From assembly GCA_965204115.1 (NCBI GenBank), contig OZ241963.1, positions 532,622 through 596,621 on the forward strand: a stretch of 64,000 nucleotides of DNA, read 5' to 3'. Position 1 is the first letter of the stretch, and the number at the start of each line of letters is the position of its first letter. Source of the DNA: Minisyncoccota bacterium. GTDB taxonomy: Bacteria > Patescibacteriota > Minisyncoccia > Phycocordibacterales > JABAAK01. The notes beneath the pieces are model-generated. The model did no database searches. It had not been told where the DNA came from and saw nothing but the letters and a program-made list of their open reading frames with translations. Below, in pieces: positions 29,294-57,357 of the stretch. Both the position numbers and the translations under genes were made by a program.

Positions 29294-29315
29294 AACTGTC
29301 AGATATGATACCATG

Positions 29316-30179: not shown

Positions 30180-30209
30180 AAATAGTAAAATCTTGGTTAT
30201 ACTAAAGGT

Positions 30210-33200
30210 ATGTTTTCTTTTAATGACCAGCGTGGCGGTTTTGCCACCATCGCCATTGTCGGGGGTGTTGCTGTTGCGGTTGTTGCCGGGGGTGTGTTTT
30301 ACTTTTTGCGCAGTAGCCCGCCTGAAGTTGATACTGTTTTGAAGGATGATTCGGCTACTGTTTTCGGTGAGGAGACCGTTTTGTCTGTTGATGCGGAGGA
30401 TGCGCTGCTTCGGAGTTTGCCTCGCGGGCGTACCAATGACTATTGCTCGTTACTCGGATTGGAGCGGGAGGCCTGTGCGGGTGGTGCCGAGGGTGTGTGC
30501 CGGGACTTGTTTGGCAGCTGTAGTATTGACGTCTCCCGTGACTCCTCTGACACTATTCGGCAGTTTGCCGAGGCCTGCTTGGTTTTGCGAACTGCGGAAG
30601 GGCGGTCGCAGTATTTTGCATGGCTTGATAGCGGTGATCCGAAGCCGTTTCCGCTTTATTACGCCATATTCGGACTGGAGGAAGGTGCGTTTAACCAGAA
30701 ACAACTCACTGATGCGTACCAGGTACTATTGGATTCATACTTTTCCACTGCTTCCTGCGACAATCGTGAGGCACTTCGTCTTTTGTCTGAGGGGTATCTT
30801 TTGCTGAGCGATGCTGCCGGTCGGTCTGAATACGATGTGTGGCTGAATGGCACCGGCAGTGATCCGTTTCCCTTATACTACGCGCTTCTTGGGCTGCGTA
30901 GAGACACTTTTACGCAACAAGATTCTGCTGATGCATACAAGAAAACCTTGGATCAATATCTTTCCGGATACTACGGCAACAATACTGAGGTCTTGCGCCT
31001 CTTGACCGAAGCGCATATGATATTGTACGATCCGTCATCGCAGTCCGCCTACAGCACACTTCTTGATGGCGGTCTGTCATCTTCTTTTTCCGATATTTCT
31101 CTTGATTTGGGTGGGGACAATCTGTTTTCTGCCCTCAGTGATCTTAACCTTTCACCCACTCATCTCGGTACTGTTTTCGGCTCCTTAGACCTGTCTTCTG
31201 CTGAGCTTGTAAGTGCTGCTGCCACGCTTGATTTCTCCTCCACTGATTTAGGCGGCTTTGTTGGCGGACTCAATCTTTCTCCGGGCAATCTCAGTGCCGT
31301 TCTGAGCGATTTTAGTATCTCTCCGGATAATCTTGGCGCTGCTCTTAACGGTCTTAATCCTTCCACTGATGACCTGAGTAACATTCTGAGTGACCTTGAT
31401 CTTTCTGCCGCTGAGCTGAGTATTGTTTTGAGTGACCTTGCTCTCCCCGCCGATGAGCTGAGTACCGTTCTGGGGGATCTTACTATACCTCCAACTGACC
31501 TGCAGACCTTATTTACCAATTTCGATATCCCTTTTCTTGGTGAGGGTACTCCGTTTCCCGGTGTTGCCGTGCCGCCCGATGATTTGCCGGATGATGCTGA
31601 TGATTTACCGGCGGTTGCTATTTCTCCGAAGCTTGTTCAGATTGGTGTTAAGAATGACGGTGTTCAGCCATCATTTCTCGTGGAGGTTACGAAAGGTGGT
31701 TCTCCGTACGCCCCTGATACGCCGATTACAGTTGCTCTGGAGTGTGAGGATGCCGTTCGTCCGGCTAGTCAGCCGACCACTTCTTTGATTTTAAGCGATT
31801 TGCCGGAATCTGTCCTGCTCTCTGCCAGCAAAGGTACGACCGGGGATTTAGTTCGAGCCCCTGGTGTTACCGGGTATGTTGTATGTGCTGTTGTTGCTGA
31901 CACTAATACAGATCCGACTTACATACTTGGCTCACCCTCCTCTGCAAGAGTTACTATTGTTGGAGGTTCGTCCGGTCCGCCTTGTGATAGGCCGTCGTGC
32001 CCCGGTGATCCGACCAGCGGTCCGTTGCCTACTGTTTCCATTGCCGCTGTTGAGCCGCGTGTTGCCAGCGGTGATGATGCGGTGTTTCGTGTTTCTTCCA
32101 GTTCCGATATTGTCGGGTCGTTGCATGTGCAGTATTCATGCAGTGCCAATACCAGTGTCGATAACACTTATCTCGGCGAGAATGATGTTACGATTCAGGG
32201 TGGTTCCGGGCAGTTTGCTACTACCATCACCCTGCCGACGAATGAGGATGTTTCTGATACCGTTACATGTGAACTACTTGATAGTGTAAAAAATGCGTAT
32301 AGGATTTTAGGTCGTGATGCTTCTGTCGGAGTCGGGTTGTTGGGATCAGGGGACATTGAAGGGTATGATCCTGCATTGCCGACCGTCTCCCTGATAGCGT
32401 ATCGCACGACACCGGGCAATTCTGGTAAGTTTTCAGAGAAGGTTAGCAGTACCGTTGTTGGTGATACGGACACTTATATTGGACTGGTGATTGATGACCC
32501 TGAATCAGATTCTTTTGGTGATGAGGATCCGGACTCCCGGAAGGAGGTTTCTGACGGTGAGTTGTATGTGCTGTATGTGACAGATTTTGGTAATACCATT
32601 TCTGTGCTGCCGGGCGATGGAGGGACTGTCACTGTTGGCATTAGTAAGGATAGGGAGGTTCCGGACTCGGAGCCGCTGTTTAATGCTGTCGCCGATACCG
32701 TTGTTGCCAAGCATTCAGGGTATGGGAGTCCTCCCACCGCTCTGCATCACAGTGCTGGGGGTGGTAGTCGTTGGAGAGGTAATTTTGCCGAGGGCAGTAT
32801 CTTTATTGAAATAACCGCAGATCATCGCGTTATTATGCGGAATGATGTCGAGGGAAATGTGATTGTTTGTGGCTATGATCGCGGTGTTCTGTATTGTGCG
32901 ACTTATGAGGATGCAGATAGATTTGCCCCGAGAAATATCTTTGTTACCGCGGAGTGTCGTAAAGAATTTTCGGATCGTGAGAGAAGTCGGGAGGACTCCG
33001 GTCTTATCACAGGCGGTCGGCGCGTGGTTGATCGCGGTAGTGAGCCGTCGTATGCGTTGCCGGTGTTCGGGTATGCTCCTGTTCGTCGCGGTGATCCCGA
33101 GGGTGACTTATACACCTTTATTCGTTCTGACGGGACTTACGATGCCCTTGATGAAGATGCAGGTCCTGATTCGGTGTTTAGTTCGATCCGTATCGATCCT

Positions 33201-36200
33201 TTTCTTGAGCCGGATACGACTTTTTCCTGTAGGATTTCCGGTGGCGGGGCAGAGGATGGGTATAATGTCGGCACTCCTTATGCGGAAGTGCAGGTGCGAC
33301 CGCGTGCGACGATATCTCTCGGTGTGCATGGTGCGCAGCGTGTTGCTGATGAGTCAGGGCTTCTCGGTGAGCCGGTTGCGCATCTTGATCGTCGTCAAGC
33401 GGAGTATAATTTTGATTCTGACAACTCTGACTTTTCTGATTTTCCCACCGGCCCAACCGGAGGTAGAGAGATTCCTGGTGTTGATGCATCGTTTCGTGAT
33501 GTGTCCGCCAGTTTAGGGGCGTCTCTTAGTGTTGGGTTTCTCACTTCTTTTGGTGCGTGTGCCGGTTCCTCTCTCTTGAATCGAGGAATCAGTGAGCTTG
33601 CTAATAGAATTGGTCTTGGCGGTTTTGGTGCTGTTCCGGTTAGATCTGCAAAACTTGAACTCAAGGAGTGTGTTTTGGATTCCGCTGTTTCCGGCGCTGT
33701 TTTGGAGGTGCTTACTGCTGTTGCGAGAGATTATATCACCTGGGCATCTGAGGGATTTGAGGACAAGCCGCTGTTTGTGAAGAATCCGACCACTTTTTAT
33801 AAGAACCTGCGCGATGATGCAATCGGTCGTGTTATTGATCGGAGTGGTCTTGGGTTTCTCTGCGATATCGGCGTTCCTAATTTTGAAGCGTACGAGGCAA
33901 CGCTTAAGATTAATTTGCAGCAGCAATATCTCGGCATCGCTACTGATCGACCGAGGTGTACCTATAGTGATTTGGCAAATAACCTTGAGGATTTTTATGA
34001 TGATGCTTCAGATGTTTTGCGTGATCTTGATCCGGAGTATTTGAGAAGCTTTGGTTTTACTATTGACGGCTCTGTCAGAACGCAGAACGCAGGCACTTTT
34101 CAGTTTCCGCCGTCTGATGGATTTACCGGCAATCAGCTTGATGCGTTCTCGGCGAACCTTGATCGCGCTATGAAGAAGACGGAGAATAGTAGTAATTTTC
34201 TCCTGGCTGTTTCCCAGGTGGATAGTGATATTCGCGAGGCGCGGCAGGAGTTTGATGCCGCTGTGAAGCCGGTTTCTCAGATTTTTAATCCGAATGACCC
34301 GACATCAATTGGTGCGTTTCGGGAGTGTAATGAGACAGAGAATCCGGAAGGTGATGTTGACTGTTTTTCATTGAATGTATCCGGTTCTAAGATTACTGAA
34401 ATGACCGGTAAGGGGATTAGCTCGCTTTCCGACCGATTGTTGCAGGTTGATGAGTTTGGGGAGTTTGGTCAGTTGGTTGGTCTGGCGGTGAACGCGACTT
34501 CTGCCGGCTTGATGAAGAAGTATTTAAGCAGGGGCTTTGGGCATTCAGTAGACAGAGAGACCGCGGATCTGTTGAGTAATATTGAAAAAGATATTGATGC
34601 CTCTCTCAGGCCGTCAAGTGCTCGTAAAGTTAGTTTGAGTGAGAACTGGTGGTCGGTGTTTTTTGAAAGAAACGCGTTTTATAATGACTTGCTGAATGCT
34701 GAGATGTATGCGAATGATGTCTTTACCTTATTGCAGTATATTGGGTCCGGTTTGTACCGGGATCCGAAGCGAATTGGTGATAAGGCATATATCCCTCCTG
34801 TCCGTCCTTATACCGCCTTTGATACTTTGCGCCATGCGAGTACGAGTGGTACACCAGGGCAATTTCCCATATTTTCGTATGGCAATTTGATTGGTTTTTC
34901 TTCCGCACAACTTACGAGGAATTATGCTAATTTTTATCACGCTCCAGATATTAAGAGTGCTGTTGAGGAGCGTGCTTTTGAGCAGCTTAATGGTAATAAT
35001 GGATGGGCGAAGGAGCGACTCCAGCATATTTTTAACGGCTGGGTCAGTGATGAATCCGGAGAGGAGCAAGGGTATCGAAAGATGGTGGCGATTGAGCGGT
35101 TTGATGATGCGCATCGTTTTTTGTCTAATGGTGAGGCGCGTTCAGCGTACAATGCTTTTCTCGGCAAGATGGGGGACTTTATTGAGAATACGCCGTATGA
35201 TCGGCAAGGCACGAGTAATTGGTGGAAGAAGAGTATGAAGAATATGCCAGACGATGTGAGAGAAGATATAGCCGGCCCTGGTCCTTCTTTGCCGGGACAT
35301 TTAGCAGGACTTAAGGATACAGATTCGCTCACCGACGATCAGAGTGTTCACTATCCCGAGGACCACACCGATTTTTCAAAACGTGTTTTCGGCGTCGGCT
35401 CTTCGGAGGAAAGGACTTGTGGTAATACACCCTGTGCTGATTGCCTGTTTCGTCGTTCAAGAGCGGCGTCAGGGAGTGCCGCGACGTGTACAACGGAAGG
35501 AGGAACAACATACCCTTGCATCAATGATATTGCGGGAAATATAGGACAGTGTATATATTTTAAGGGCGGTACTTCTGATCTTAGTGCTGGTGTTTGTGGT
35601 CTTTCGCTTACGGATCCGAGGTTTGAAACCCATTGCGGGGTCTGCTGGCCTCACAATCTCAATGGCAATACCGATCAAAATAAGTTTACTGCGTTTACGG
35701 GTGAGGTTGAGTACTATTGTCCTGCGGGAGGGACTTCCGAAAAGTTGCTGGATGCTCAGGGGGACCTTGTTACCATCAAACAATTGCGTAAGATTTACGA
35801 AGCAACATTGGCGGTGCATATTCGTTTAGTTGGAACGCTTGATGAGTATCGAGGCGCTCCACTGCTCAGCTCGCCTATTCATACTTACCGCAGAGAGATT
35901 TTGGATGCTTATCGGGCAGATCCTGATTCTGATGATCTTGATAGTGGCGGCGGGTGGGCAGTTGTGCAGCAGGAAACTTTAAAAAAGTTTCGTGACGGCA
36001 CAATGCAGGTGTATATTCCTCTTGACGATGACGAGTTTGGTGAGCAGGAGTATTTGACTCTTTTGAGTAGTGTTGGGTGTGTGAAAGCGGATGCGATTAC
36101 TTTTCAGGACGGTGCTTTTATCAGAAGTTATCAGGAGATGAGTTGTGTTTTAGGAACAGTTTTTCAGGATCAGGCGTACTTTGTACTTCGTCGAGAGAAT

Positions 36201-37031
36201 GATGATCTCAATAAGCGGCGTGTTGTGTATCTTGCTTGCGGGTATGATGATGATTCTGATGATGATTCTGTCGCTCCCGGCCAGCAGTCAGATGCAGACA
36301 AGCGTTTCCGGTTCAAGAAGGGCGTGGAAGGAAACCCAAGACCACTTCCGCCGGTGACCCTGGAGAAGGGGGAGGATTCGGTTATCTTTCCGGTGCCGAA
36401 ACCGATTTGGTCGCCGTTTGATCTTGGTGACCGCACTCCTTATAATAAGGATGACACTCCTCCTAACTACACTCCATTAACCGGTCAACGGATTCGTTGC
36501 TCTATAGATTTGAAGAGGACTCAGGTGAGTGCTGATGTTGCTGTGGATACGCTTACCCAAGTTGTCACTGTCTCGGAGCATCTGTCAAATGATGGTTCTC
36601 CCGTCACTTTTCACTCTCTGGTTCGGAATACTTTGGGGGGTATTGTTACCTCTCGTCTTGAGGATCGAAAGGATATGGTTGCTGAAGCACTGTTTTATAC
36701 CTATGTTTGGGGGTGGTATACCGGATTTATAGAGATGCCGTATTACTCTATTCAAGGACTGTTATCTAACCCGCCGGTAATTTTGACGGATAGCAAGGTG
36801 GCGGTGACGGCGAATATTCAGGGTAATCAGGAGGCGTTGCGACGGTATCGTTTTTTGAGTTCGCTGTTTGCCAATGAGAGTGATTCGCGGTTTTCGTCAA
36901 AAAACTTTGGTTTTCTTACTCCTGCTGAGGCGCGTGCTGAGTACGAGCATTCTTTTGACGATCGGTTTAATGGATATTTTGGACGCGCGCTCGGAGAATT
37001 TTTTGAGCTGCTCCCCAATATGCATCAGTAA
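30210..37031 (+). CDS. Giant (2273 aa) membrane-anchored surface protein. One N-terminal TM, three degenerate J-domain-like repeats lacking HPD, about nine 14-aa tandem repeats, then a large Cys-containing domain of unknown function
   Basis: Single uninterrupted 6.8-kb ORF. TM GFATIAIVGGVAVAVVAGGVFYF. J-like repeats PLYYALLGL...DAYKKTLDQY...LRLLTEAHMILYD span nt ~30432-31065. 14-aa period xxVLSDLxLSxxEL spans nt ~31092-31530. Confidence 0.75.
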   Translation: MFSFNDQRGGFATIAIVGGVAVAVVAGGVFYFLRSSPPEVDTVLKDDSATVFGEETVLSVDAEDALLRSLPRGRTNDYCSLLGLEREACAGGAEGVCRDLFGSCSIDVSRDSSDTIRQFAEACLVLRTAEGRSQYFAWLDSGDPKPFPLYYAIFGLEEGAFNQKQLTDAYQVLLDSYFSTASCDNREALRLLSEGYLLLSDAAGRSEYDVWLNGTGSDPFPLYYALLGLRRDTFTQQDSADAYKKTLDQYLSGYYGNNTEVLRLLTEAHMILYDPSSQSAYSTLLDGGLSSSFSDISLDLGGDNLFSALSDLNLSPTHLGTVFGSLDLSSAELVSAAATLDFSSTDLGGFVGGLNLSPGNLSAVLSDFSISPDNLGAALNGLNPSTDDLSNILSDLDLSAAELSIVLSDLALPADELSTVLGDLTIPPTDLQTLFTNFDIPFLGEGTPFPGVAVPPDDLPDDADDLPAVAISPKLVQIGVKNDGVQPSFLVEVTKGGSPYAPDTPITVALECEDAVRPASQPTTSLILSDLPESVLLSASKGTTGDLVRAPGVTGYVVCAVVADTNTDPTYILGSPSSARVTIVGGSSGPPCDRPSCPGDPTSGPLPTVSIAAVEPRVASGDDAVFRVSSSSDIVGSLHVQYSCSANTSVDNTYLGENDVTIQGGSGQFATTITLPTNEDVSDTVTCELLDSVKNAYRILGRDASVGVGLLGSGDIEGYDPALPTVSLIAYRTTPGNSGKFSEKVSSTVVGDTDTYIGLVIDDPESDSFGDEDPDSRKEVSDGELYVLYVTDFGNTISVLPGDGGTVTVGISKDREVPDSEPLFNAVADTVVAKHSGYGSPPTALHHSAGGGSRWRGNFAEGSIFIEITADHRVIMRNDVEGNVIVCGYDRGVLYCATYEDADRFAPRNIFVTAECRKEFSDRERSREDSGLITGGRRVVDRGSEPSYALPVFGYAPVRRGDPEGDLYTFIRSDGTYDALDEDAGPDSVFSSIRIDPFLEPDTTFSCRISGGGAEDGYNVGTPYAEVQVRPRATISLGVHGAQRVADESGLLGEPVAHLDRRQAEYNFDSDNSDFSDFPTGPTGGREIPGVDASFRDVSASLGASLSVGFLTSFGACAGSSLLNRGISELANRIGLGGFGAVPVRSAKLELKECVLDSAVSGAVLEVLTAVARDYITWASEGFEDKPLFVKNPTTFYKNLRDDAIGRVIDRSGLGFLCDIGVPNFEAYEATLKINLQQQYLGIATDRPRCTYSDLANNLEDFYDDASDVLRDLDPEYLRSFGFTIDGSVRTQNAGTFQFPPSDGFTGNQLDAFSANLDRAMKKTENSSNFLLAVSQVDSDIREARQEFDAAVKPVSQIFNPNDPTSIGAFRECNETENPEGDVDCFSLNVSGSKITEMTGKGISSLSDRLLQVDEFGEFGQLVGLAVNATSAGLMKKYLSRGFGHSVDRETADLLSNIEKDIDASLRPSSARKVSLSENWWSVFFERNAFYNDLLNAEMYANDVFTLLQYIGSGLYRDPKRIGDKAYIPPVRPYTAFDTLRHASTSGTPGQFPIFSYGNLIGFSSAQLTRNYANFYHAPDIKSAVEERAFEQLNGNNGWAKERLQHIFNGWVSDESGEEQGYRKMVAIERFDDAHRFLSNGEARSAYNAFLGKMGDFIENTPYDRQGTSNWWKKSMKNMPDDVREDIAGPGPSLPGHLAGLKDTDSLTDDQSVHYPEDHTDFSKRVFGVGSSEERTCGNTPCADCLFRRSRAASGSAATCTTEGGTTYPCINDIAGNIGQCIYFKGGTSDLSAGVCGLSLTDPRFETHCGVCWPHNLNGNTDQNKFTAFTGEVEYYCPAGGTSEKLLDAQGDLVTIKQLRKIYEATLAVHIRLVGTLDEYRGAPLLSSPIHTYRREILDAYRADPDSDDLDSGGGWAVVQQETLKKFRDGTMQVYIPLDDDEFGEQEYLTLLSSVGCVKADAITFQDGAFIRSYQEMSCVLGTVFQDQAYFVLRRENDDLNKRRVVYLACGYDDDSDDDSVAPGQQSDADKRFRFKKGVEGNPRPLPPVTLEKGEDSVIFPVPKPIWSPFDLGDRTPYNKDDTPPNYTPLTGQRIRCSIDLKRTQVSADVAVDTLTQVVTVSEHLSNDGSPVTFHSLVRNTLGGIVTSRLEDRKDMVAEALFYTYVWGWYTGFIEMPYYSIQGLLSNPPVILTDSKVAVTANIQGNQEALRRYRFLSSLFANESDSRFSSKNFGFLTPAEARAEYEHSFDDRFNGYFGRALGEFFELLPNMHQ

Positions 37032-37079
37032 GTATGAAAAATGCGCGACGGATGTCGCGCATTAAGTTTTGTGCGGAGG

Positions 37080-37766
37080 TTAGGGAAGGATTTTGGCACA
37101 GGCGAATGCCGTGTCTAGGCTGAAGTTCCTGTCGACTATCTTTTCCCTGGATATTTGATATCCTTCTCCAACAAAATCCAGCCCGAGATATCTTCCTATA
37201 ATGAGTGTCCATTCACTTTTTTCCCACCCCATGAACATCCCGTCTTCCTGTGAAAGCAGGGCGAAGAATCTGGACATTTTTTTATTCGCGGTCTCTGTCT
37301 TTCCCGGCTGATCGGTGAAATCTAATCTTATCATCACCGCCTCTTCCAGGGTTAGCGGCCTATACCCCTCTGCCCCGAAGTGGCTTCTTATCTTTTCTAT
37401 TGTGGGCGTCCCTGTCATTCCCGCCTCACGGAGCGTTAGGACAGTGATCTCAGTTTCGCCCGGAATTTTGGACATTGGCATATCTATTATTCTCATTCGC
37501 AGTGATACGCTGTAGGCATGGAAGTTTTCTCGGTTCCATAGGGTGTCTACTATATCTTCCCCCGTTTCATACACACCTGTCCTCACTATTATGGTTCCAT
37601 CCATCCAGTGCGGTACCCAATCCGGCCACTCAGACGATGGGGCTTGCTCTTCTGTCACCATTGTCTCAGCCACTATGGACCCGTCCTCTTCAATGTCGGG
37701 TGAGCATCCGACCAGGGAAAACATTGATACCATTGTTAGCAGTGCTACTGTCGTTGCAACTCTCAT
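37080..37766 (-). CDS. Lipoprotein of unknown function
   Basis: Signal peptide with lipobox LVGCS. 228 aa. Confidence 0.6.
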   Translation of the reverse strand: MRVATTVALLTMVSMFSLVGCSPDIEEDGSIVAETMVTEEQAPSSEWPDWVPHWMDGTIIVRTGVYETGEDIVDTLWNRENFHAYSVSLRMRIIDMPMSKIPGETEITVLTLREAGMTGTPTIEKIRSHFGAEGYRPLTLEEAVMIRLDFTDQPGKTETANKKMSRFFALLSQEDGMFMGWEKSEWTLIIGRYLGLDFVGEGYQISREKIVDRNFSLDTAFACAKILP

Positions 37767-37957: not shown

Positions 37958-40900
37958 GTGTATATGATGTTTGCTTTTATCAGGCGGCGGTGGGTTGTGT
38001 TCGGCACACTTTGTTTATTGTTGCTGTGTTTGGTTTTTGTGCCGCAGTTTGTGTTTGCTAATGTTGCTGATGGAATTACCAGCGTTATTAATGCCGTGGT
38101 CGGAGGTTTGATGAAGGGGCTTGAGTGGCTGGTCTCGCTGTTTCAATTCTTGTTTTTGCAGGTTATTCAATTTACCATTCTTGATTTTGCAAATCACTGG
38201 AAGGATAAGGGACTTCTTTCTGATTTTCGGGTGGTGTGGCAGGTCCTGCGGGATTTTGTGAACCTGTCCATTGTTGTGCTTTTCGTTCTTACCGCCATGA
38301 TGACTGTTCTTGACGCGAAAGGGCAATTCGGCTTTCACCGGAAGGGGTTGTTGTATTTGATTGCTGCTGCTGTTTTTGTGAATTTCAGTGCTTTCTTTAC
38401 TTTGCTTGTTATTGATGTTTCGCATATTCTGTTTATGTTGTTTTTTAATGCACTTGATGTGTCAACATTAGGATCGTTCTCGCCGTTCTCCGGGTATAGT
38501 GAGGTTTTGGGTAGTACTGCTGATGGCATTTTCAACATCATTCTCGGCGTTATTGCGATTGTGGTGAATTGGTTTATCATACTCGGCATTCTCTATTTCT
38601 GTATCATGTTGATTGAGCGGTATATTATTGCCATGTTTCTTGTACTTTTTTCGCCGTTCGCGGCACTCGGGTTTTTTACCAACATGTCCGGCGGTGGTAA
38701 CCCTCTTGCCGACAAGTTTTCCGGTGTGTATAAGATATGGAGTGAGCGGCTTGGCTATGTGTTCACCATGCCGGTCATACTTATCGTTGGGTTTGCGCTT
38801 CTGTTGGTTTTGTTCCGCGGGGCGTTGGGTCAGATGGTTGATCCTGATAACTTTGTTAAGTTGATTGGTGTTAACACTCCGGAGGGGCGGGGTATTCTCC
38901 TGCAGCTTATGCTTGCGAGCGTTGTGTTGATACTTGGCATTTTCAAGGTCGGTGAGTTTGCGAAGAATGCGAATATTCATCCCGCTATTGCTAATAAGTT
39001 TAAGTTTGGGGAACTGGCGTCCAAGCTGGTTCCAAAAGCGTCATCTGCTCCGAAAGCGGTACTTGGTGCTGTTCGGTCGATTAAGAACCCTGCCGGTCGG
39101 GGTGTCTTTGGTTATAAGCAAAAGATCTATGATCAGCGGAAGGAGTGGCAGCAGGCGCAGGATAGGGGGGAGAAGACGCCTTGGATCGCAAAGGTGCCCG
39201 GCGTCGGGAAGTCGCTTGATGTGGGGGGTAAAGTGCGGCGAGGCAGGCAGCGTGCTCAATCTATTGTTCGCGGCGCTCAGGTAGTTGCGGGCGGGCAGTC
39301 AGGTCGTAATGTTGACTGGCAGAATGCTGAGGCAAATGAGGACGCGAGAATCTGGGACATCATTCGTAACCCCACCAGCACTAGAGAGCAAAAGGAAGAT
39401 CTTTTGACGCAGGCGCTTGATGATAAGAGCAATGTTACGCTTAATGAGCAGCAGACCGCTGAGCTTGCGAGGAACATTGAGTTGCACCCACTGATTTCAT
39501 CATTGAAGAAGGGGGTTTCTCAGGGTACTTTCAGGCAGATACGAGGGGATGCGGAAGTACGGGCAAAGGAGCTTGCTGTTGAGAAGGATGCTATTGCCGC
39601 TGAGAAGGGCACCCCTCCTCCTGAGTATGAGAAGAGACAGCAGGAGCTTCACACTGCTGAGATAGATTATAAGGGCGCAGAGCTGGCGTATGATGATTTG
39701 ATGCGGCAAAAAAATTTTGCACAGGATGAGTTTAATGCCGCGAAGGAGGCATTTGAACAGACGGATGCGTATAAGAAGTTTAATCGAGATCTTGACAGTA
39801 AAATGCAGGACTTTGAGTCCGGCAAGATAGCTTGGGAGGATGTTGAAAATTTTGAGACCACTTTTTATGAGGATGCTGCAACTCGAACGCAAGCCGGTTC
39901 TGTCCGGCAGCAGAAGCTTGCTGTATTGGAGAAGATGAAGGATTCATTGCGTACGGCAAAAGATACAAAGAAGTCCGCGGACAATGTACAGCAGGGTGCC
40001 AAGAAAGCCTTTGAGGTTGAGGAGAGCAAGCATTATAATGCTATACGGCAAAAGGAAGACGCTAATACCAGTGCGCGAGGGGTGGTTACGCAGACATTTT
40101 CTAACCTTGCGACGAATACTGCCGCAGGTACCTCTGTTTCAAGAAATGCAGCAGCGGTGTTTGACCCTGATGCATTGAAGGATGCGCGTGCGGAGCGGGA
40201 GTCCGTTGCTGCTCCTATTGATAAGCAATTTCAGAATATGAAAAATGATTATGCGAAGTCGTCCGCAGTCGCTTTGGAGGACCTTAAGGCAGAAGAGAAA
40301 ACTATTGCGGAGAAAAACGCTGAGGAGAATGCGGATCTTCTTGAGAAGCGGGAGGAGTATGCTGATGAGGAGATGCAGAATCCTAACCCCAATGTTCTTA
40401 CGAGTCGCATGTTTGAGCTTCAGGAGGAGATTGATGCTTTGGAGCAGGAGTCCGCCGCGCGTCGTGAGCGATCTTTGGCGATTAATGCGGAGAGAGGTCG
40501 TATTAGGTCTATCAGAAAAAATCTTGAGAAGCAGGATGTTTCTGATTCTGAGAAGCTTGCCGTTCTTGGTGAATCTGTCAAGAGTGCGAAGTCATTTGTG
40601 CAGGGTGGGACGCAGTATCTTACTGCTCAGCTGAAGGCTGTTGATGATAAAATGACTGCGCTTGAATCTGTGGCGAAGCAGCGGGGTACTGATGTGAATA
40701 GCAATAGTGAGTACACAGATCTGCGGGATGAGCAAGAGCGCATCACCAATCGTATTGGGTATATCGGTCGTGTCGGTGGCAGTATTGCGGAGGTGGGTGA
40801 GGCCTTAGATGAGCAGAAGGAGATCCTTGAGAGTCCGGAATATACCGACGCTCTTGGTCAGGAACAGTATCTCTCGCTGTTCAGTGTGAAGACCTTACTG

Positions 40901-41188
40901 CGTGATATTGAGTCGGCTCTGGAAAGGCGTAAGAAGGCCTTTACTGAGAAGGAAGAGAAGAAGCTGGCGAAGAAGATGAAAGAGCAAGGGAAGAAGGGCG
41001 CTCCGAAGGTTCCGAAGAACGCTCATAAGGAGGATCCTGAGTGGAAGGTTCTTGACCAGCAGAAGAAGAATCTCAAGAAGATACAGGCGGAAGGTGGTGC
41101 CTCTGCTGAGCTGCAGCAGGCGGCCGTTAAGGCGGCAGAGCAGCTGGCAAAGCAGCAAGCGCAGAAGAAAAAACAGAAACAAAAATAG
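37958..41188 (+). CDS. VirB6/TrbL-like polytopic membrane protein with a long K/E-rich coiled-coil C-terminal extension (1076 aa)
   Basis: N-terminal signal-like helix, then at least six TM helices over about 330 aa, then about 700 aa of charged coiled coil. Sits immediately upstream of the VirB3/VirB4-like genes. Confidence 0.6.
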   Translation: MYMMFAFIRRRWVVFGTLCLLLLCLVFVPQFVFANVADGITSVINAVVGGLMKGLEWLVSLFQFLFLQVIQFTILDFANHWKDKGLLSDFRVVWQVLRDFVNLSIVVLFVLTAMMTVLDAKGQFGFHRKGLLYLIAAAVFVNFSAFFTLLVIDVSHILFMLFFNALDVSTLGSFSPFSGYSEVLGSTADGIFNIILGVIAIVVNWFIILGILYFCIMLIERYIIAMFLVLFSPFAALGFFTNMSGGGNPLADKFSGVYKIWSERLGYVFTMPVILIVGFALLLVLFRGALGQMVDPDNFVKLIGVNTPEGRGILLQLMLASVVLILGIFKVGEFAKNANIHPAIANKFKFGELASKLVPKASSAPKAVLGAVRSIKNPAGRGVFGYKQKIYDQRKEWQQAQDRGEKTPWIAKVPGVGKSLDVGGKVRRGRQRAQSIVRGAQVVAGGQSGRNVDWQNAEANEDARIWDIIRNPTSTREQKEDLLTQALDDKSNVTLNEQQTAELARNIELHPLISSLKKGVSQGTFRQIRGDAEVRAKELAVEKDAIAAEKGTPPPEYEKRQQELHTAEIDYKGAELAYDDLMRQKNFAQDEFNAAKEAFEQTDAYKKFNRDLDSKMQDFESGKIAWEDVENFETTFYEDAATRTQAGSVRQQKLAVLEKMKDSLRTAKDTKKSADNVQQGAKKAFEVEESKHYNAIRQKEDANTSARGVVTQTFSNLATNTAAGTSVSRNAAAVFDPDALKDARAERESVAAPIDKQFQNMKNDYAKSSAVALEDLKAEEKTIAEKNAEENADLLEKREEYADEEMQNPNPNVLTSRMFELQEEIDALEQESAARRERSLAINAERGRIRSIRKNLEKQDVSDSEKLAVLGESVKSAKSFVQGGTQYLTAQLKAVDDKMTALESVAKQRGTDVNSNSEYTDLRDEQERITNRIGYIGRVGGSIAEVGEALDEQKEILESPEYTDALGQEQYLSLFSVKTLLRDIESALERRKKAFTEKEEKKLAKKMKEQGKKGAPKVPKNAHKEDPEWKVLDQQKKNLKKIQAEGGASAELQQAAVKAAEQLAKQQAQKKKQKQK

Positions 41189-41201
41189 CGAGGGTAGTGG
41201 G

Positions 41202-41230
41202 TTGACAGTATATATTTTTTATGGTATAAT
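41202..41230 (+). promoter_or_regulatory. Consensus sigma70 promoter: TTGACA, 17-nt spacer, TATAAT
   Basis: -35 TTGACA at 41202..41207, exact 17-nt spacer, -10 TATAAT at 41225..41230. Confidence 0.55.
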
Positions 41231-41236
41231 TATATT

Positions 41237-41440
41237 GGACTTCAATAGTCCCTGTCCTGCCGTGCGGTCAGTTTACTGACCACAAAAATGGACATACTGA
41301 AGTTCTTTAAAAGTGACCTTCCTTATTAGTGCCCGCAAGGGGTAGCTGCTTCGGCGGCATGGGAGGTCCATAACTATCTGATAGAGTTACGCTTGCCCAA
41401 CCGGTTTCCATAAGACTGGTTGGGCATTTGTTATTTTTAT
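41237..41440 (+). ncRNA. Structured leader or small RNA of about 200 nt between the consensus promoter and an intrinsic terminator, immediately upstream of the VirB3/VirB4-like genes (candidate attenuator, riboswitch or sRNA)
   Basis: Four hairpins: GGACT-tcaat-AGTCC, GGTCAG-TTTA-CTGACC, CCC-GCAA-GGG (GNRA tetraloop) and GCTGC-UUCG-GCGGC (UUCG tetraloop). Terminator GCCCAACCGGT/ACTGGTTGGGC at 41395..41425 followed by ATTTGTTATTTTTAT. No ORF inside. Confidence 0.4.
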
Positions 41441-41458
41441 ACGCTATACTGTGTTTGT

Positions 41459-41914
41459 ATGCGCTTTCAGGTTCCGCAAAATTTAGATGTGCCGGATACT
41501 ATTCTTTTGGGTTTGGATTTTAGGCAGCTGATTTACCTTGGTGGTGCTGCCGGACTTTTGGTGTTTTTGTTTCTGTTTTTTGGTATTTTGCCGACGGTCT
41601 TTATTGGTGGTCCGGTTGCTATTCTTGCGGGTTTTTTGTCGTTTTTTACCTATAATAACCAGAAGTTTGTCACGCTTTTTCAATCGTTGATACGGTTTTT
41701 TTCCCGGAAGAAGATGTATGTGTGGCGGCGTGGTACTATTGACGCAGCAGTGCGGCGCACAGCTAAGGAGGATGACTCCGTTGACGGGGAATTTGTGCAC
41801 CCGGACTCTTATTCGCAACGACAGCGGCTGGATAAGGTTCGTGAAGTGAGTGCCAATCTTGTTTTTTCTGATGATGGGGGTGACTCGTATGATGAGCTTG
41901 ATATTGTTCTATGA
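41459..41914 (+). CDS. VirB3/PrgI-like small 2-TM protein of T4SS-type systems
   Basis: About 150 aa with a two-TM hairpin (LIYLGGAAGLLVFLFLFFGILPTVFIGGPVAILAGFLSFFTY), directly before the VirB4 ATPase. Start chosen at the ATG downstream of the terminator; track start 41420 overlaps the terminator. Confidence 0.55.
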   Translation: MRFQVPQNLDVPDTILLGLDFRQLIYLGGAAGLLVFLFLFFGILPTVFIGGPVAILAGFLSFFTYNNQKFVTLFQSLIRFFSRKKMYVWRRGTIDAAVRRTAKEDDSVDGEFVHPDSYSQRQRLDKVREVSANLVFSDDGGDSYDELDIVL

Positions 41915-42531
41915 CTGCAAACACCACCACACAATCATTTGTTCCTTTGAAGGATATTCAAAATGGTATTGTTACCCGGGATGACGGTGTTTTGTGTGCC
42001 GTGTTGTTGGTTTCGTCTGTCAATTTTAACCTGAAGTCGGAAGATGAGCGGCAGGCCATTCTCTATCAGTTTCAATCTATCTTGAATTCGCTTGAGGTCG
42101 GTGTTCAGATTATTGTCCAGTCGCGACGGCTCAATATTAAGCCCTATCTGCAGTACCTTGAGGAGGTGTATGAAAAACAGACCATTGAATTGTTGCGTTT
42201 GCAGACGCGGGAGTATATTAACTTTATTTCTGATTTTACGGAGCGCAATGAGATTATGACAAAACAGTTTTTTGTTGTTGTTTCGTATTCCCCTGTTTCG
42301 TCCGGCGGTCTTGCCGGCGGACTGCCTTTTTTAGGCAAGAAGGAGGCGACATCGGAGCAAAAAATGACCGAGGAGCATGTTACGCAGTTGCTGCAGCGAG
42401 TTTCTTTTATCCAGAATAATATACGGGCATTAGGATTGCGAGCGGTGCAGCTCGGTACTGAGGAGGTGACTGAGTTGCTGTACAAGACCTTCAATCCGGG
42501 TGATACGCAGACGCCTCCTCCTGCAACTTAA
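41911..42531 (+). CDS. VirB4/TrbE/CagE-like ATPase, N-terminal domain fragment (206 aa) of a split gene
   Basis: VPLKDIQNGIVTRDDGVLCAVLLVSSVNFNLKSEDERQAILYQFQSILNSL matches the N-terminal CagE_TrbE_VirB region of Gram-positive-type VirB4 (PrgJ/TcpF-like). ATGA overlap with the upstream gene. Confidence 0.7.
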   Translation: MTANTTTQSFVPLKDIQNGIVTRDDGVLCAVLLVSSVNFNLKSEDERQAILYQFQSILNSLEVGVQIIVQSRRLNIKPYLQYLEEVYEKQTIELLRLQTREYINFISDFTERNEIMTKQFFVVVSYSPVSSGGLAGGLPFLGKKEATSEQKMTEEHVTQLLQRVSFIQNNIRALGLRAVQLGTEEVTELLYKTFNPGDTQTPPPAT

Positions 42532-42580
42532 TACATTTGTTTTGCCTCCGTGATGTTTATCTGGTGTATTATATTGGTAT

Positions 42581-44413
42581 ATGGGTATTTTTGATGCGTT
42601 TGGTGGCAAGAAGCAGGGGGATTCCTCAGTGCGTGCTGTTACTGAGGAGGATTTTATTCCTGAAGCTGCGTTCAGTCCGGCAACTATCGGCTTGCGGGAT
42701 GTTATCGCGCCGCCGGCTATACAAATAACTTCACGACATGTTGCTTTAGGGAGTAAGTTCGCCCGATCTTTTGCGGTGGTGTCATACCCGCGGTTTTTGA
42801 ACGAAGGATGGTTTTCTCCGGTTATTAACTTGAGCAAGGAATTTGATATCGCCATCTTTGTGCATCCGATGAATTCAAAAGATGTGTTGCGGAAGTTTCG
42901 GCGAAAAGTGGCGCAGGTTGAGAGTCAGATTATTGAACGGGAGAGCAAGGGGATGGTGCGTGATCCGAAGCTTGATACCGCACACCAAGATCTTGAGGAT
43001 TTGCGTATGAATATTCAGCAGGCGACTGAGCGGATGTTTGAGGTTGGGGTGTACATCACTATTTACGGTGAGACGGTTGAGGAAATCAATGAAGTTGAGA
43101 AAGATATGCGGTCGCTGCTCGAAGGGAAACTTATTTTTGTGAAGCCGACTGTCTTTCAGCAGGAGCAGGGGTTTCGGAGCACAAGCCCGTTCGGCACTGA
43201 TTTGCTTTCTATTCACACAAAGCTGAACTCTGAGCCGTTGTCAAGCTTGTTTCCGTTTATCTCTTTTGATTTGTCCGCTGAGAAGGGGATACTGTACGGT
43301 ATCAATCAGCACAATGCCTCACTTATTCTGTTTGACCGTTTTTCTCTGCCGAACTATAACTCAGTCACCTTCGCGACCTCCGGTGCAGGGAAGTCGTACG
43401 CCATGAAGCTTGAGGTGCTGCGATCGTTGATGGTCGGTGTTGATGTTATCGTGATAGACCCGGAGCGGGAGTTTGAGCGATTAGCGCAGGCAACGGGCGG
43501 TCGTTACTTTAATGTTTCATTGAATTCGGAACACCATGTTAATCCGTTTGATTTGCCACCGGTCGGTGAGGATGAGAATCCGTCCGATGTATTGCGCAGC
43601 ACGGTTATTAACCTTGTCGGTTTTTTTCGGGTGCTGCTCGGCGATTTGTCGCAGGAGGAAGAGTCAATTATTGATCACGCGATTCGTGAAACATATGCAT
43701 TGAAGGACATCACGATGGAAGGGGGTTTTGAGCATATTGATCCTCCGCTTATTTCTGACTTTGCGCTTGTGCTCGCGGGAATTGAGGGCGGTGAGCAGCT
43801 TGCTGAGCGACTCAGTCGGTATACAACCGGTTCGTGGGCCGGATTTTTGAATCAGCCGACCAACATTGATATCGGTCGGCGGTTTGTTGTTTTTTCTATA
43901 CGGGATATGGAGGATGATTTGAAGACCGCTGCTATGTATATCATTACGCGGTTTATTTGGAATAATATTCGGAAAAAATTGAAGAAGCGGCTGTTAGTGG
44001 TTGATGAGGCGTGGATTATGATGCAGTCGGGCGACACCGCTTCTTTTTTGTTCGGTTTGGTAAAACGCGGTCGGAAGTATTACCTCGGTGTGGGTACTAT
44101 TACGCAGGATGTCGGAGATTTTTTGCGGTCGGATTATGGTAAGCCGATATTGAATAACTCTTCTTTGATTTTGCTGTTGCGGCAGTCGGCGACTTCCATT
44201 GACCTGGTGCAGCAGACCTTTAACCTGACTGACAGTGAGAAGTACCTCCTCCTTGAGGCAGCGGTCGGTGAAGGGCTTTTTATTGCCGGTTTGAAGCGGG
44301 TTGCTATAAAAATCATCGCCTCTTTCACTGAGGATAAAATTATTACCACCGATCCGTCTCAGCTCCTTAATCAGCAGCGGGTTGTGCAGCAGCAGCCACT
44401 TGATGCGGTATGA
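42581..44413 (+). CDS. virB4: VirB4/TrbE-like T4SS ATPase, C-terminal ATPase part (610 aa)
   Basis: Walker A FATSGAGKSYAMK, Walker B LLVVDEAW. The TcpF/PrgJ-like middle region IAPPAIQITSRHVALGSKFARSFAVVSYPRF is also present. Confidence 0.9.
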   Translation: MGIFDAFGGKKQGDSSVRAVTEEDFIPEAAFSPATIGLRDVIAPPAIQITSRHVALGSKFARSFAVVSYPRFLNEGWFSPVINLSKEFDIAIFVHPMNSKDVLRKFRRKVAQVESQIIERESKGMVRDPKLDTAHQDLEDLRMNIQQATERMFEVGVYITIYGETVEEINEVEKDMRSLLEGKLIFVKPTVFQQEQGFRSTSPFGTDLLSIHTKLNSEPLSSLFPFISFDLSAEKGILYGINQHNASLILFDRFSLPNYNSVTFATSGAGKSYAMKLEVLRSLMVGVDVIVIDPEREFERLAQATGGRYFNVSLNSEHHVNPFDLPPVGEDENPSDVLRSTVINLVGFFRVLLGDLSQEEESIIDHAIRETYALKDITMEGGFEHIDPPLISDFALVLAGIEGGEQLAERLSRYTTGSWAGFLNQPTNIDIGRRFVVFSIRDMEDDLKTAAMYIITRFIWNNIRKKLKKRLLVVDEAWIMMQSGDTASFLFGLVKRGRKYYLGVGTITQDVGDFLRSDYGKPILNNSSLILLLRQSATSIDLVQQTFNLTDSEKYLLLEAAVGEGLFIAGLKRVAIKIIASFTEDKIITTDPSQLLNQQRVVQQQPLDAV

Positions 44414-44916
44414 GTATAGAGAACACAGCAAAATCTTTCGGGGCGGCATTTGCCTTTACCGGTGTGGCATGGCTTTCTGAGGTGATCAGTGGAGCATTGG
44501 GTTCTCTGCAGAGCTCTTCCGTTACCTTTCTTCTTGATGGCGGCATCACCGTCGGTATCCTGGCAATTACTGCCGGTCTTGTTGATTTTTTTCTCGGCAC
44601 TGATATTATTGCGACAGCTGCTGGGATTCTCGCGGTTTTTTTCGGTCTTCAAGCGTTTGTTTCTTTGCTGACGCTGTGTGTTTTTTATGCTATTGTTCGC
44701 ATGTCTCCGAAAGGCACCTACACGCTTCTTGATTGCATCATTGCTGCCGGTGTTTGCCTGCTTGAGGCGTTGCCATTTGTCTCCACTTTTGTTTTTTGGG
44801 GGATGTTTGCAGCTTACTTACGGCGACAGCAGATTTCACAGGTTGCTTCGATACTTCCTCAGACGCGTGCGTTTGGTGTTGTGGCAAAAGGTGTTCAGGC
44901 GTTGGGGAAGTCGTAA
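44410..44916 (+). CDS. Integral membrane protein (168 aa, about four TM) translationally coupled to virB4
   Basis: ATGA overlap with the virB4 stop. Hydrophobic; no known domain. Confidence 0.6.
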   Translation: MSIENTAKSFGAAFAFTGVAWLSEVISGALGSLQSSSVTFLLDGGITVGILAITAGLVDFFLGTDIIATAAGILAVFFGLQAFVSLLTLCVFYAIVRMSPKGTYTLLDCIIAAGVCLLEALPFVSTFVFWGMFAAYLRRQQISQVASILPQTRAFGVVAKGVQALGKS

Positions 44917-44975: not shown

Positions 44976-45710
44976 TTATTCCCCCTTTTTGTTACTTTGG
45001 AGGATGTTTGCTACATAACTTTCCAGTTGGGCAGTGGTGAGGGAGCCGACGCTTTCAAAGAGCAGTTCGCCGTTACCGGAGATGAATTGGATGTAGGGTG
45101 TTTCGTCAATATTGAGTTCACGGACATCCTGTATTGCTTGTAGTGTTTGGGGAGCAATCTCTCTTCCTTCTTTTCTGCATTGCTCAACTTTGTCAAAAGG
45201 GATGTTGAGGCGTTTCATCAGCATTTTGTAGCGGTCGTTGGGGTACTCAATTTCCATTACGCCGCCGATGAGGGACTCCTCTATGAATTTCCATGCGGTT
45301 ATGCGTGCTTGTTCGCCGGCATGGAGACGGATGCATTCAAGTGTTTGTGCTTTTTTGACGGAGGTTTCGTTGATGTGAAACCCATTTCTCCACACCCATG
45401 CCACTCTGCCGGACACCCCCCAGTCGCTTTTGATGAGTGTCTTTGCATGCGGGTGAAATTCTTTGCAGTACGGACATTCCAGATCGCCGTACTCCACGAT
45501 GAAGAGGTCTGCTTTCGGATTGCCGAATATGAGATCAATTTTTTTGTTTACTGGCCTGAAGTAGCGGTCATCACGGGTGTCTATCATCACTTCTACGGCG
45601 TTGCTATGCTGTACAAGAAGTACGGCACTCACGAGCAGGGCGATTGTGATGATGAGCACATCAACAGCGATTTTGTATCCACCTCTCTTTTGTGCTTGTG
45701 TTGCTTCCAT
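44976..45710 (-). CDS. DsbA-like thiol:disulfide oxidoreductase (thioredoxin fold), membrane-anchored
   Basis: CPYC active site (DLECPYCKEF). N-terminal TM anchor. Start at the internal ATG (MEATQ...). Confidence 0.8.
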   Translation of the reverse strand: MEATQAQKRGGYKIAVDVLIITIALLVSAVLLVQHSNAVEVMIDTRDDRYFRPVNKKIDLIFGNPKADLFIVEYGDLECPYCKEFHPHAKTLIKSDWGVSGRVAWVWRNGFHINETSVKKAQTLECIRLHAGEQARITAWKFIEESLIGGVMEIEYPNDRYKMLMKRLNIPFDKVEQCRKEGREIAPQTLQAIQDVRELNIDETPYIQFISGNGELLFESVGSLTTAQLESYVANILQSNKKGE

Positions 45711-45733
45711 ACAGTGTTCATTATATCGTGAAA

Positions 45734-46309
45734 CTAGAATAAGCTGACGGATGCATCTTCCACATTCTCTTCTCTTTTCCACTGTGAGGTGTCTATCGGT
45801 ATGGTGTGTATTGATCCGAGGTCGTTGTACAGGAGCTCCTCATTTTTCAGCGCGTAATCAAAGATGTCTTTTGTGATACGCACATCATCAATGCAGTACT
45901 GTTTCACCTCTTCAACCTTTCCTTGCTTCCACCATTCCACTGCCTGCAGTCCGTCGCCGCTTTTATTGATGCCGAGTGTTCCTTCGGCGATCCAGTCAAG
46001 GCGTATTCGTCTGCCGAGTGATTGACGGACACTTTCCAGGAGGTCAATGCTGTCGTACTCTTTTGTTAAATCCATCGGTGCGTATTTGTTCAGCAGAGGG
46101 GTGTCAAAATGGTTGTTGTTGAATCCGATGAGTGTGTCAATGTTGCGCATCACTTCCCAGAGATCCGGCAGTGTTTCCTGTGTGTATGCGGTGTATGCGT
46201 CGTCGGTGTAGCTGTATACCGCGATGACGGCGAGTGTAAGGTCCTCGGGGTTGCGTTTCTCGTTGTTAAACACATCTGAGGTTTCTATGTCAAAAACAAG
46301 TCCTTTCAT
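45734..46309 (-). CDS. DEDD-family 3'-5' exonuclease (RNase T/DnaQ-like)
   Basis: FDIETS Exo I motif. Later HFD and D motifs. Confidence 0.7.
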   Translation of the reverse strand: MKGLVFDIETSDVFNNEKRNPEDLTLAVIAVYSYTDDAYTAYTQETLPDLWEVMRNIDTLIGFNNNHFDTPLLNKYAPMDLTKEYDSIDLLESVRQSLGRRIRLDWIAEGTLGINKSGDGLQAVEWWKQGKVEEVKQYCIDDVRITKDIFDYALKNEELLYNDLGSIHTIPIDTSQWKREENVEDASVSLF

Positions 46310-51125: not shown

Positions 51126-51130
51126 TGATT

Positions 51131-52640: not shown

Positions 52641-53087
52641 TTGCATATGAGTCTTATATCTTATAAAAAATTACCTCTTCTTACAGTCGGTGCTTCGCTG
52701 CTCTTTTTCGTTTCCGGTTTTGCTCAGAGTGTTTTGGCGCAGAGCGAAACTTTTTTTCCGCAGGGGAGCGATCGTTTATCTGTTGCCGTCAGTGGTGTTG
52801 GTAGGGGAGCTGAAACATTCGGCACCTTGGTGAGTTTGGGGACTACTATTGCGGTTTCTTTGGCGTTTTTCTTCTTCTTTTGGAATTTGTTTAAGTTTAT
52901 TAGAGCCGCTGATCCTGACAGTAAAGAGGAGGCGCAGGGGAAGATGGTGTGGTCTCTCGTGGCGATTATTGTAATCGTCTCTTTGTGGGGTATTATTGCG
53001 TTTGTTCGTTCGGTCTTCGGTTTTGGTTCCGGAGTGGGGGAGGAGAATGATGTTTTCTTCCCGAGAGCGCGTGTGCTTGATAGTTAA
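52641..53087 (+). CDS. Small secreted protein with two hydrophobic helices: VirB2/TrbC-type pilin-like candidate
   Basis: Signal peptide (…GFAQSVLAQS), then two TM-length hydrophobic segments separated by a short charged loop. 148 aa. Confidence 0.5.
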   Translation: MHMSLISYKKLPLLTVGASLLFFVSGFAQSVLAQSETFFPQGSDRLSVAVSGVGRGAETFGTLVSLGTTIAVSLAFFFFFWNLFKFIRAADPDSKEEAQGKMVWSLVAIIVIVSLWGIIAFVRSVFGFGSGVGEENDVFFPRARVLDS

Positions 53088-56775: not shown

Positions 56776-56778
56776 TGT

Positions 56779-57345: not shown

Positions 57346-57357
57346 TAACGATGTACT

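Follow-up and report, generated by a model that had tools for sequence, protein, structure and literature searches.

Whether the genes at positions 37958 to 44916 of a 64,000-nucleotide (nt) stretch of contig OZ241963.1 (assembly GCA_965204115.1, a Minisyncoccota bacterium) belong to a type IV secretion system (T4SS), and what such a machine would do in a bacterium of this kind, was examined by computational analysis. The whole 64,000-nt stretch is called the window; module open reading frames (ORFs) are given with their coordinates and strand in it, and all statements of absence refer to these 64 kb. An earlier note on this DNA had described a T4SS-like module of VirB3-VirB4-VirB6 architecture, chromosomal and possibly non-conjugative. 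The region is very probably a chromosomal T4SS of the Patescibacteria clade, carried by a Kaiserbacteria/Paceibacteria-like genome and derived from monoderm conjugation machinery of the MPF_FATA type (MPF, mating-pair formation). By homology, it has a VirB6-like protein, a PrgI/VirB3-like protein, a VirB4 in two pieces and a VirB2-like pilin, as follows.

37958..41188, + strand: extended VirB6/TrbL-like polytopic membrane protein, 1076 amino acids (aa); family-level profile homology
41459..41914, + strand: PrgI/VirB3-like protein, 151 aa, with a hairpin of two transmembrane (TM) segments; PF12666
41911..42531, + strand: TrsD-like protein, a free-standing VirB4 N-terminal domain, 206 aa; N-terminal positions of VirB4 models
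42581..44413, + strand: VirB4 ATPase core of the CD1110/MPF_FATA type, 610 aa; NF045971, P-loop_TraG and Walker motifs
52647..53087, + strand: VirB2-like T4SS pilin; PF18895, matched by the ORF at 52641-53087

For VirB4, the 610-aa ORF was matched by the curated CD1110-family model NF045971 at 345.9 bits (cut-off 325; E 4.5e-103; model positions 184-734 of 752) and by P-loop_TraG (E 1.2e-22), and its Walker A and Walker B motifs are TSGAGKS (residue 266) and VVDEAW (residue 473); the match to NF045975, the Mbov_0397 ATPase family, was at E 5e-76, below the equivalog cut-off. The nearest VirB4s outside the candidate phyla radiation (CPR) were Gram-positive CD1110-family proteins, and identity to plasmid VirB4s was at most 36%. 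Hidden Markov model (HMM) matches of the TrsD-like ORF covered NF045975 positions 101-234 (E 1.1e-12, score below the equivalog cut-off), TIGR00929 positions 19-183 and NF045971 positions 5-119, and the match to the TrsD model NF041427 was weak (E 6.4e-6; 26 bits against a cut-off of 200); PF26593 (TraC-like) is precomputed on close homologues of this ORF, and a Pfam scan of the window's own ORF gave no match. With these two NF045971 intervals, the ORFs jointly tile the full-length CD1110 VirB4 model. The 206-aa ORF, joined to prgI by an ATGA start/stop overlap, ends at TAA 42529-42531, and the 610-aa ATPase starts in a different frame at ATG 42581, across a spacer of 49 nt. Counts over 80 loci refer here and below to the best 80 of 225 genome relatives of the window's VirB4 (VirB4 identity 49-92%). 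A separate TrsD-like ORF was found directly upstream of virB4 in 77 of the 80 related loci, across many CPR classes, and TrsD identity among close relatives was 70-96%; since the two-ORF layout is so widely kept, the split is native and not a frameshift or a pseudogene, and VirB4 is predicted to be made as two polypeptides, a TrsD-like N-domain and an ATPase core. The earlier note had placed a single VirB4 at 41911-44413: similarity to VirB4, with both Walker motifs and a score above the CD1110-family cut-off, holds for this region, and the single ORF is replaced by two in different frames.

The PrgI protein scored 32.8 bits against PF12666 (gathering score 27; E 1.1e-7) and has one 45-residue hydrophobic hairpin at residues 21-65, in agreement with the earlier description of a 2-TM VirB3/PrgI-like protein; its homologues stand directly upstream of trsD in 75 loci. 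The start is most likely ATG 41459 and not TTG 41420, which is located within the terminator stem of an upstream RNA considered below.

The 1076-aa protein has about eight hydrophobic segments within residues 7-336 (TM domain approximately 1-340), followed by a helical tail of 676 aa (residues 400-1076) that is 35% charged and A/E/K/Q-rich, so that the polytopic protein with a coiled-coil-type tail of the earlier note was found as described. The likely start of its gene is ATG 37964, 6 nt after a TATACT box. By iterated HMM searches, its N-terminal domain was found upstream of prgI and on the same strand in 60 of the 80 loci; in most of the other 20, the upstream sequence was too short to show a VirB6-like gene. 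An HMM built from only 53 distant members (14-21% identity) matched the window protein at 56 bits (E 1.5e-19), and 22 of 56 family members matched the Pfam family TrbL/VirB6 (PF04610; best E 4.9e-10). The best PDB match of the family profile was TrwI, the VirB6 of R388 (E 0.072), and hhalign of this profile against an alignment of four TrwI-type proteins gave E 2.4e-4 over 161 columns, pairing the W..R and (S/G)P...P.T...W motifs. L-numbers denote loci from relatives' genomes used for the synteny comparison; in two of these, L002 and L004 (VirB4 91% and 79% identical), no VirB6-like gene was found within 9 kb upstream of prgI (L002 1-8700; L004 1-8900), and L004 has instead a 498-aa polytopic protein with about nine hydrophobic segments at 6246-7739. 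The VirB6-like gene of these loci must be elsewhere or have been replaced.

For the pilin, a score of 30.3 bits was obtained against PF18895 (gathering score 26.6; E 4.4e-7), and the predicted topology is a signal peptide and two hydrophobic helices (hydrophobic segments 10-29, 59-81 and 98-116), which supports the VirB2/TrbC-like candidate that had been pointed out 8 kb away. In the window and in L001 the pilin gene is separated from virB4 by HisRS-MurG-GluRS, and in L083, L085, L088 and L089 it lies two genes after the gene of a 4-TM protein that follows virB4. It also matched NF045849, the pilin-like conjugal transfer protein Mbov_0395 of the Mycoplasma integrative and conjugative element (ICE), at E 3.7e-8 (32.9 bits against a cut-off of 40). 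VirB2-like pilins are generally missing from Gram-positive systems (PMC12857230). A pilin resembling Mbov_0395 together with a TrsD/VirB4 pair resembling Mbov_0397 is a hint that MPF_FATA systems are not all pilin-free.

The window is plainly chromosomal. It contains UvrA, EF-Tu, a ribosomal-protein operon, ribonucleotide reductase, RecG, UvrD, KsgA, HisRS, MurG, GluRS, pyruvate kinase, PilB, TruB and three tRNAs, and the composition and GC skew of the module are uniform. The closest genomes were metagenome-assembled genomes (MAGs) of Kaiserbacteria/Paceibacterota (VirB4 identity 79-92%), and all genome relatives of VirB4 among those listed were CPR MAGs or apparently mislabelled CPR MAGs. The order kept in relatives is UvrD, KsgA, an all-alpha protein (h285), giant protein(s), a lipoprotein on the opposite strand, VirB6-like, PrgI, TrsD, VirB4 and the 4-TM protein, with the UvrD and KsgA flanks retained down to approximately 80% VirB4 identity; in L085 and L089 the T4SS locus is near yidC-rnpA-dnaN. 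Because of these housekeeping flanks and the conserved synteny in relatives, the locus is taken to be chromosomal, as the earlier note had it, and vertically kept. HMM library scans of the ORFs across the window revealed no member of the relaxase, VirD4/TcpA or VirB8 families, again as previously claimed, and no integrase or replication gene; the combination of relaxase and VirD4/TcpA-type coupling protein with MPF genes that marks a conjugative T4SS was thus not found in the 64 kb. Within the cluster there was likewise no VirB8/PrgL/TcpC-type protein, that is, a bitopic protein with an NTF2-like alpha+beta domain (h285 is all-alpha and the lipoprotein without sequence match). The proposal of a non-conjugative apparatus is accordingly favoured as far as the window reaches, its basis being the absence of relaxase and type IV coupling protein (T4CP) within 64 kb. 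Of the proposed VirB3-VirB4-VirB6 architecture all three members are present, and the order should read VirB6-VirB3-TrsD-VirB4.

A T4SS of Patescibacteria was reportedly described by McLean et al. in 2020. The present locus matches the published Patescibacteria T4SS (PMC10633639, PMC12102498), and its identification is correct but known; the less ordinary details are the naturally split VirB4 and an unclassified structured RNA before the core genes. In Southlakia epibionticum the T4SS was found to be essential, with pilins present and no coupling protein or relaxase recognised (Wang et al. 2023; PMC10633639). In the survey of Quinonero-Coronel et al. (2025), 2,425 VirB4s are grouped as a Patescibacteria clade within MPF_FATA, with PrgI, VirB6 and PF18895 pilins near virB4, ksgA as a frequent neighbour, relaxases rare and VirD4 homologues mostly far from virB4 (PMC12102498). 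Like the S. epibionticum system (SEML1_0006-0019), the locus is chromosomal, has PrgI/VirB3 and a separate TrsD before VirB4 and a PF18895 pilin, no relaxase or T4CP nearby, and ksgA in the neighbourhood; its VirB6-like protein is comparable to the TrbL/VirB6-like SEML1_0013 (>1,085 aa; class approximately 1,000-1,100 aa). Unlike the Patescibacteria systems, it has a single pilin gene at 8 kb of housekeeping genes from virB4 and no pilin array; unlike S. epibionticum (SEML1_0012), it has no NTF2/VirB8-like gene between virB6 and prgI, and it has lineage-specific giant, h285, lipoprotein and 4-TM neighbours and an RNA unit upstream of prgI.

Likeness to the MPF_FATA systems of Firmicutes (CTn2 with its CD1110-type VirB4, pGO1 TrsC/TrsD/TrsE, pCF10 PrgH/PrgI/PrgJ) lies in the CD1110 score above cut-off, the PrgI family, a split N-domain that resembles TrsD of pGO1 and a monoderm layout without VirB7/9/10, and the differences are the low VirB4 identity to plasmids (≤36%), the missing relaxase/T4CP in the window, the presence of a VirB2-like pilin and the stable chromosomal context. 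R388 TrwI and Agrobacterium VirB6 (PF04610) are likewise polytopic and similar at the level of family HMM and profile-profile comparison; the window protein is 3x longer than these, with its charged 676-aa C-terminal tail, is below Pfam detection, and stands in a monoderm context without VirB5 or VirB10 partners. The Mycoplasma ICE is resembled in the pilin (NF045849) and in TrsD and VirB4 (NF045975), in contrast to which all scores were below equivalog cut-offs and no ICE backbone was present in the window.

By analogy with S. epibionticum, where a homologous cluster is essential for epibiotic growth (PMC10633639, PMC12102498, PMC12857230), the machine most likely serves host-cell interaction (transfer of protein or other macromolecules, or attachment) and not plasmid conjugation. 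Several results weigh against identifying the locus and its role in this way. The host-interaction role is borrowed from a different class (Saccharimonadia), and no VirB8-like or VirB1 homologue was identified in the window. The 1076-aa protein had no direct Pfam or NCBIfam match at E ≤ 0.1, and the hhalign probability for its family's match to TrwI was just 44%. Its AlphaFold2 (AF2) model, for which 18 sequences were used (17 homologues given), was poor (predicted local distance difference test, pLDDT, 58.9), and Foldseek with this model gave no match at E < 0.3, TrwI (7o3v_G) ranking fourth with a TM-score of 0.43. Because the model was poor and the Foldseek search uninformative, the VirB6 assignment rests on sequence profiles, by which the protein was accepted as a putative extended VirB6; membership in the TrbL/VirB6 family thus stood at family level and not by direct match, and the structure prediction suggested earlier yielded a model without a significant fold match.

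The pseudogene reading, in which the cluster is decaying and the stop codon (TAA 42529-42531) and frame change between 41911-42531 and 42581-44413 mark a broken VirB4, is hardly credible: both ORFs are intact with their own start codons, the layout recurs in the 77 loci across CPR classes, with 70-96% TrsD identity in close relatives, and no T4SS component is reported to be more abundant in the phylum than a separate TrsD, which is also listed as essential in S. epibionticum (PMC12102498). This reading is already refuted by conservation. It is highly improbable that these genes make up the mating-pair-formation part of an integrated conjugative element, whether active or a remnant, and serve to move DNA between cells. 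In favour of this, the closest relatives of the VirB4 outside the CPR are conjugation ATPases of the CD1110 family from Gram-positive plasmids and ICEs (up to 36% identity), and families of conjugation systems, the Mycoplasma ICE models among them, are matched by PrgI, TrsD and the pilin; against it stand a window with no relaxase, T4CP, integrase or replication gene, uniform composition and GC skew, UvrD/KsgA flanks kept in relatives, and relaxases in just 103 of 3,035 genomes of the phylum (PMC12102498).

Import, in the manner of the T4SS-related uptake by H. pylori ComB or archaeal Ced, of DNA or other host macromolecules that would feed an auxotrophic epibiont is unlikely, if less so than conjugation. 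It agrees with the lack of a recognisable coupling protein or relaxase in the window and with the reliance of Patescibacteria on hosts for nucleotides, a CedB match at the VirB4 C-terminus was obtained (weak, E 1.8e-6, far below its cut-off), and the literature still admits such a role. Against it, no ComB- or Ced-specific components were found in the window, and in S. epibionticum loss of comEC abolished competence and left the cells viable, while the T4SS is essential (PMC12857230); nutritional DNA uptake is therefore not the essential role of the T4SS in that species.

Around the core, the following features were annotated.

29313..30179, + strand: h285, TM-anchored all-alpha extracytoplasmic protein, between ksgA and the giant gene
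30210..37031, + strand: giant 2273-aa protein with N-terminal TM anchor; ORF and topology
37080..37766, - strand: lipoprotein, 228 aa, lipobox LVGC, between the giant and VirB6-like genes
44410..44916, + strand: 4-TM protein, 168 aa, lineage-restricted, no assigned family; topology, ATGA overlap with virB4
44976..45782, - strand: membrane-anchored DsbA-like thioredoxin-fold protein; PF13462 Thioredoxin_4, E 3.6e-10
51098..52549, + strand: TM + coiled-coil + M23 peptidoglycan endopeptidase; PF01551 (E 8e-29) and NCBIfam M23 families

The h285 protein has an invariant DSDGDGVPNWLEE motif, 32 lineage-restricted homologues and conserved synteny in L003 and L083-L085; its AF2 model (pLDDT 78) consisted of helices only and gave no significant fold match. 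As a candidate for the missing VirB8 it was rejected, the predicted fold being all-alpha with no NTF2-like match. The giant protein, whose ORF and N-terminal TM segment (8-35) agree with the membrane-anchored 2273-aa protein reported upstream of the module, has 36 Cys with a Cys-rich block at residues 1737-1837; it is fast-evolving, yet its position directly upstream of the VirB6-like gene is conserved, with homologues at the same position in L003, L082-L085, L088 and L089. Three to four repeats like J-domain helices (YYA.FGL...AY..LL), without the HPD motif, were seen in it at 30420-31100 (residues ~70-290) and around 35300; DnaJ-like matches were all below threshold (E 4e-4 to 1e-2) and were not used.

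One or two copies of the lipoprotein gene stand at the same position in L001 and L081-L084, and in its alignment an invariant Cys stands out, as do the motifs PxWADG, GYRP.T.EE and DQP; no Pfam or PDB match was obtained, profile searches included. The 4-TM protein was found after virB4 in L001-L004, L083, L085, L088 and L089, with 23 matching clusters among 1.84 billion representatives, and its translational coupling to VirB4, stated earlier, is seen in the ATGA start/stop overlap. Neither a Pfam or PDB match (20 family members) nor pilin similarity was found for it, and it was rejected as a second or duplicated VirB2 pilin (hhalign probability 0.1%). A small protein with two to four hydrophobic segments directly follows virB4 in 46 of 76 loci from CPR classes (L005-L080); these proteins have no detectable sequence similarity to the 4-TM protein of the window. 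The giant, h285, lipoprotein and 4-TM proteins may be lineage-specific accessory or surface parts, or substrates, a suggestion based on conserved synteny only.

The Thioredoxin_4 match bears out the convergent DsbA-like oxidoreductase reported downstream; its adjacency to the module is kept just in the closest relatives, L001 and L002, and for this reason it was not counted as a module component. The M23 gene is directly upstream of the pilin gene, and the M23-pilin pair is also present in L001. M23-containing VirB1 analogues were noted in Patescibacteria (PMC12102498), and the M23 protein is a candidate cell-wall remodelling (VirB1-analogue) component.

Between the VirB6-like gene and prgI there is a non-coding gap of 270 nt (41189-41458), with these features.

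41202..41230, + strand: consensus sigma-70 promoter (TTGACA, 17 nt, TATAAT, TG extension), 12/12 match
41237..41440, + strand: structured non-coding RNA, ~200 nt; folding, terminator, homologues
41445..41450, + strand: TATACT -10-like box, candidate promoter of a leaderless prgI-trsD transcript, 8 nt before the prgI ATG

The promoter was the best of 11 sites and the sole perfect match in 9 kb, and a near-identical promoter was found in L002, L082 and L081. In the RNA, a 5' hairpin is followed by a three-way junction (41315-41368) and then by an intrinsic terminator (41394-41426; 14-bp hairpin) with U tract, and the minimum free energy was -80.2 kcal/mol (z = -5.6 against shuffles). In the L002 homologue, 11 of the 40 predicted pairs differ by compensatory changes, and the sequence of the terminator is unrelated; L082 and L081 have a longer RNA that has the three-way junction in common with the window RNA, and the outer stem of the junction covaries (GACCUUCC/GGGAGGUC, GUCUCAC/GUGAGAC, CCACAUCCC/GGGAUGUGG), the covariation support being two sequence pairs. 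Rfam gave no match at gathering score and nothing better than E 0.39 with permissive filters, nor any credible match for the L082 and L002 copies. Searches of 91 sources (1.5 Mb) with nhmmer and a covariance model turned up no more than four instances, type A in the window and L002, to which the covariance-model matches were confined, and type B in L082 and L081. One metagenome scan with PrgI as the query yielded a single distant locus, which lacks the RNA. The unit is absent from the close relatives L001, L003, L083, L085, L088 and L089, in which the VirB6-PrgI gap is 0-60 nt. In L002 the RNA is directly upstream of prgI though no VirB6-like gene is nearby, and therefore it travels with prgI. 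In L081 (3925-5140) a stretch of N and a transposase gene of the rve family break the RNA promoter, and the RNA follows at 5138-5478; this interruption is either an insertion-sequence insertion or a scaffolding gap.

The earlier phrase for this gap, a promoter with structured leader, holds for the promoter and for the fold; since the RNA ends in a terminator before prgI, it may be a separate RNA and not a simple 5' untranslated region. The element would be either an independent small RNA or an attenuating leader, that is, an attenuated second promoter of the core operon.

TATACT-N8-ATG at prgI is kept in every relative examined (L001-L004, L082), with a variable spacer sequence, and the giant and VirB6-like genes each have a TATACT box 6 nt ahead of the ATG. 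Window-wide, 9 of 37 TATACT sites (24%) were 5-10 nt before gene starts, against 27 of 1389 (1.9%) for other permutations of the same letters; the genes so preceded are UvrA, ribonucleotide reductase small subunit, RecG, giant, VirB6-like, PrgI, GluRS, M23 and HhH-GPD (TATACT+ATG sites at 2410-2428, 30195-30209, 37952-37963, 41445-41458, 49708-49724, 51113-51130 and others). No Shine-Dalgarno-like sequence was evident by eye upstream of eight inspected starts. This pattern of letters suggests that leaderless mRNAs are widespread in the genome.

Pieces of the locus were also found at unrelated sites of two large non-CPR contigs: L087 8474-10657 and L090 4727-7074 are approximately 2.1-2.3 kb long and homologous to window 36400-38960 (69-81% nucleotide identity), and hold the 3' end of the giant gene, a complete lipoprotein gene including its lipobox, and 219-363 codons from the start of the VirB6-like gene. 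The two contigs measure 6.8 Mb and 6.74 Mb; the second is circular, has 243x coverage and shows Por_Secre_tail/type IX secretion system neighbours. The insertions look real, assembly chimeras being the less likely alternative. Their boundaries differ, and they are therefore taken as independent events with the lipoprotein gene in common; they may represent DNA transfer from epibiont to host. That promoter, ~200-nt RNA and terminator together form an undescribed Patescibacterial T4SS regulatory RNA (attenuator/riboswitch-like leader or small RNA), and that the two independent insertions may record epibiont-to-host transfer of a T4SS-associated gene, is a tentative proposal and, taken as one claim, rather doubtful.

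Elsewhere in the window, a 1314-aa protein at 23829-27773 has six FG-GAP repeats, two peptidoglycan-binding domains and one Ig-like domain; the centre of its gene (24001-26000) is 59% GC with negative GC skew, the rest of the window being 47-54% GC with positive skew. A type IV pilus/type II secretion system (T2SS)-like cluster at 56134-59680, a second envelope machine 12 kb from the T4SS, consists of three unannotated small proteins, one of them weakly GspM-like (E 7.5e-4), followed by a PilB/T2SSE ATPase with MshEN domain.

From established T4SS knowledge, VirB6 and VirB3 would form a membrane platform on which TrsD and VirB4 would dock as the energising ATPase; the pilin would be pulled out of the membrane and polymerised into a short pilus, and the M23 peptidase may open or remodel the cell wall locally. 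Such monoderm parts would build a short pilus and/or move macromolecules at the epibiont-host interface. Transcription would start from the TATACT boxes that precede the start codons of the giant, virB6-like and prgI genes by 6-8 nt, and a separate strong promoter would give the ~200-nt structured RNA, terminated just before prgI.

Few machines have been shown to be indispensable to Patescibacteria in their epibiotic life, and the T4SS is among them. On the question of its cargo the locus adds nothing categorically new; it is a clean example of the Paceibacteria type, in which VirB6, PrgI, TrsD, VirB4 and the 4-TM protein make up a compact core and the candidates for adhesins or substrates are the giant protein, h285 and the lipoprotein. 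If the fragments in large genomes are real, they could help to trace the hosts of an uncultured lineage, and if the RNA regulates the core operon, it would offer a first way into T4SS regulation in this phylum.

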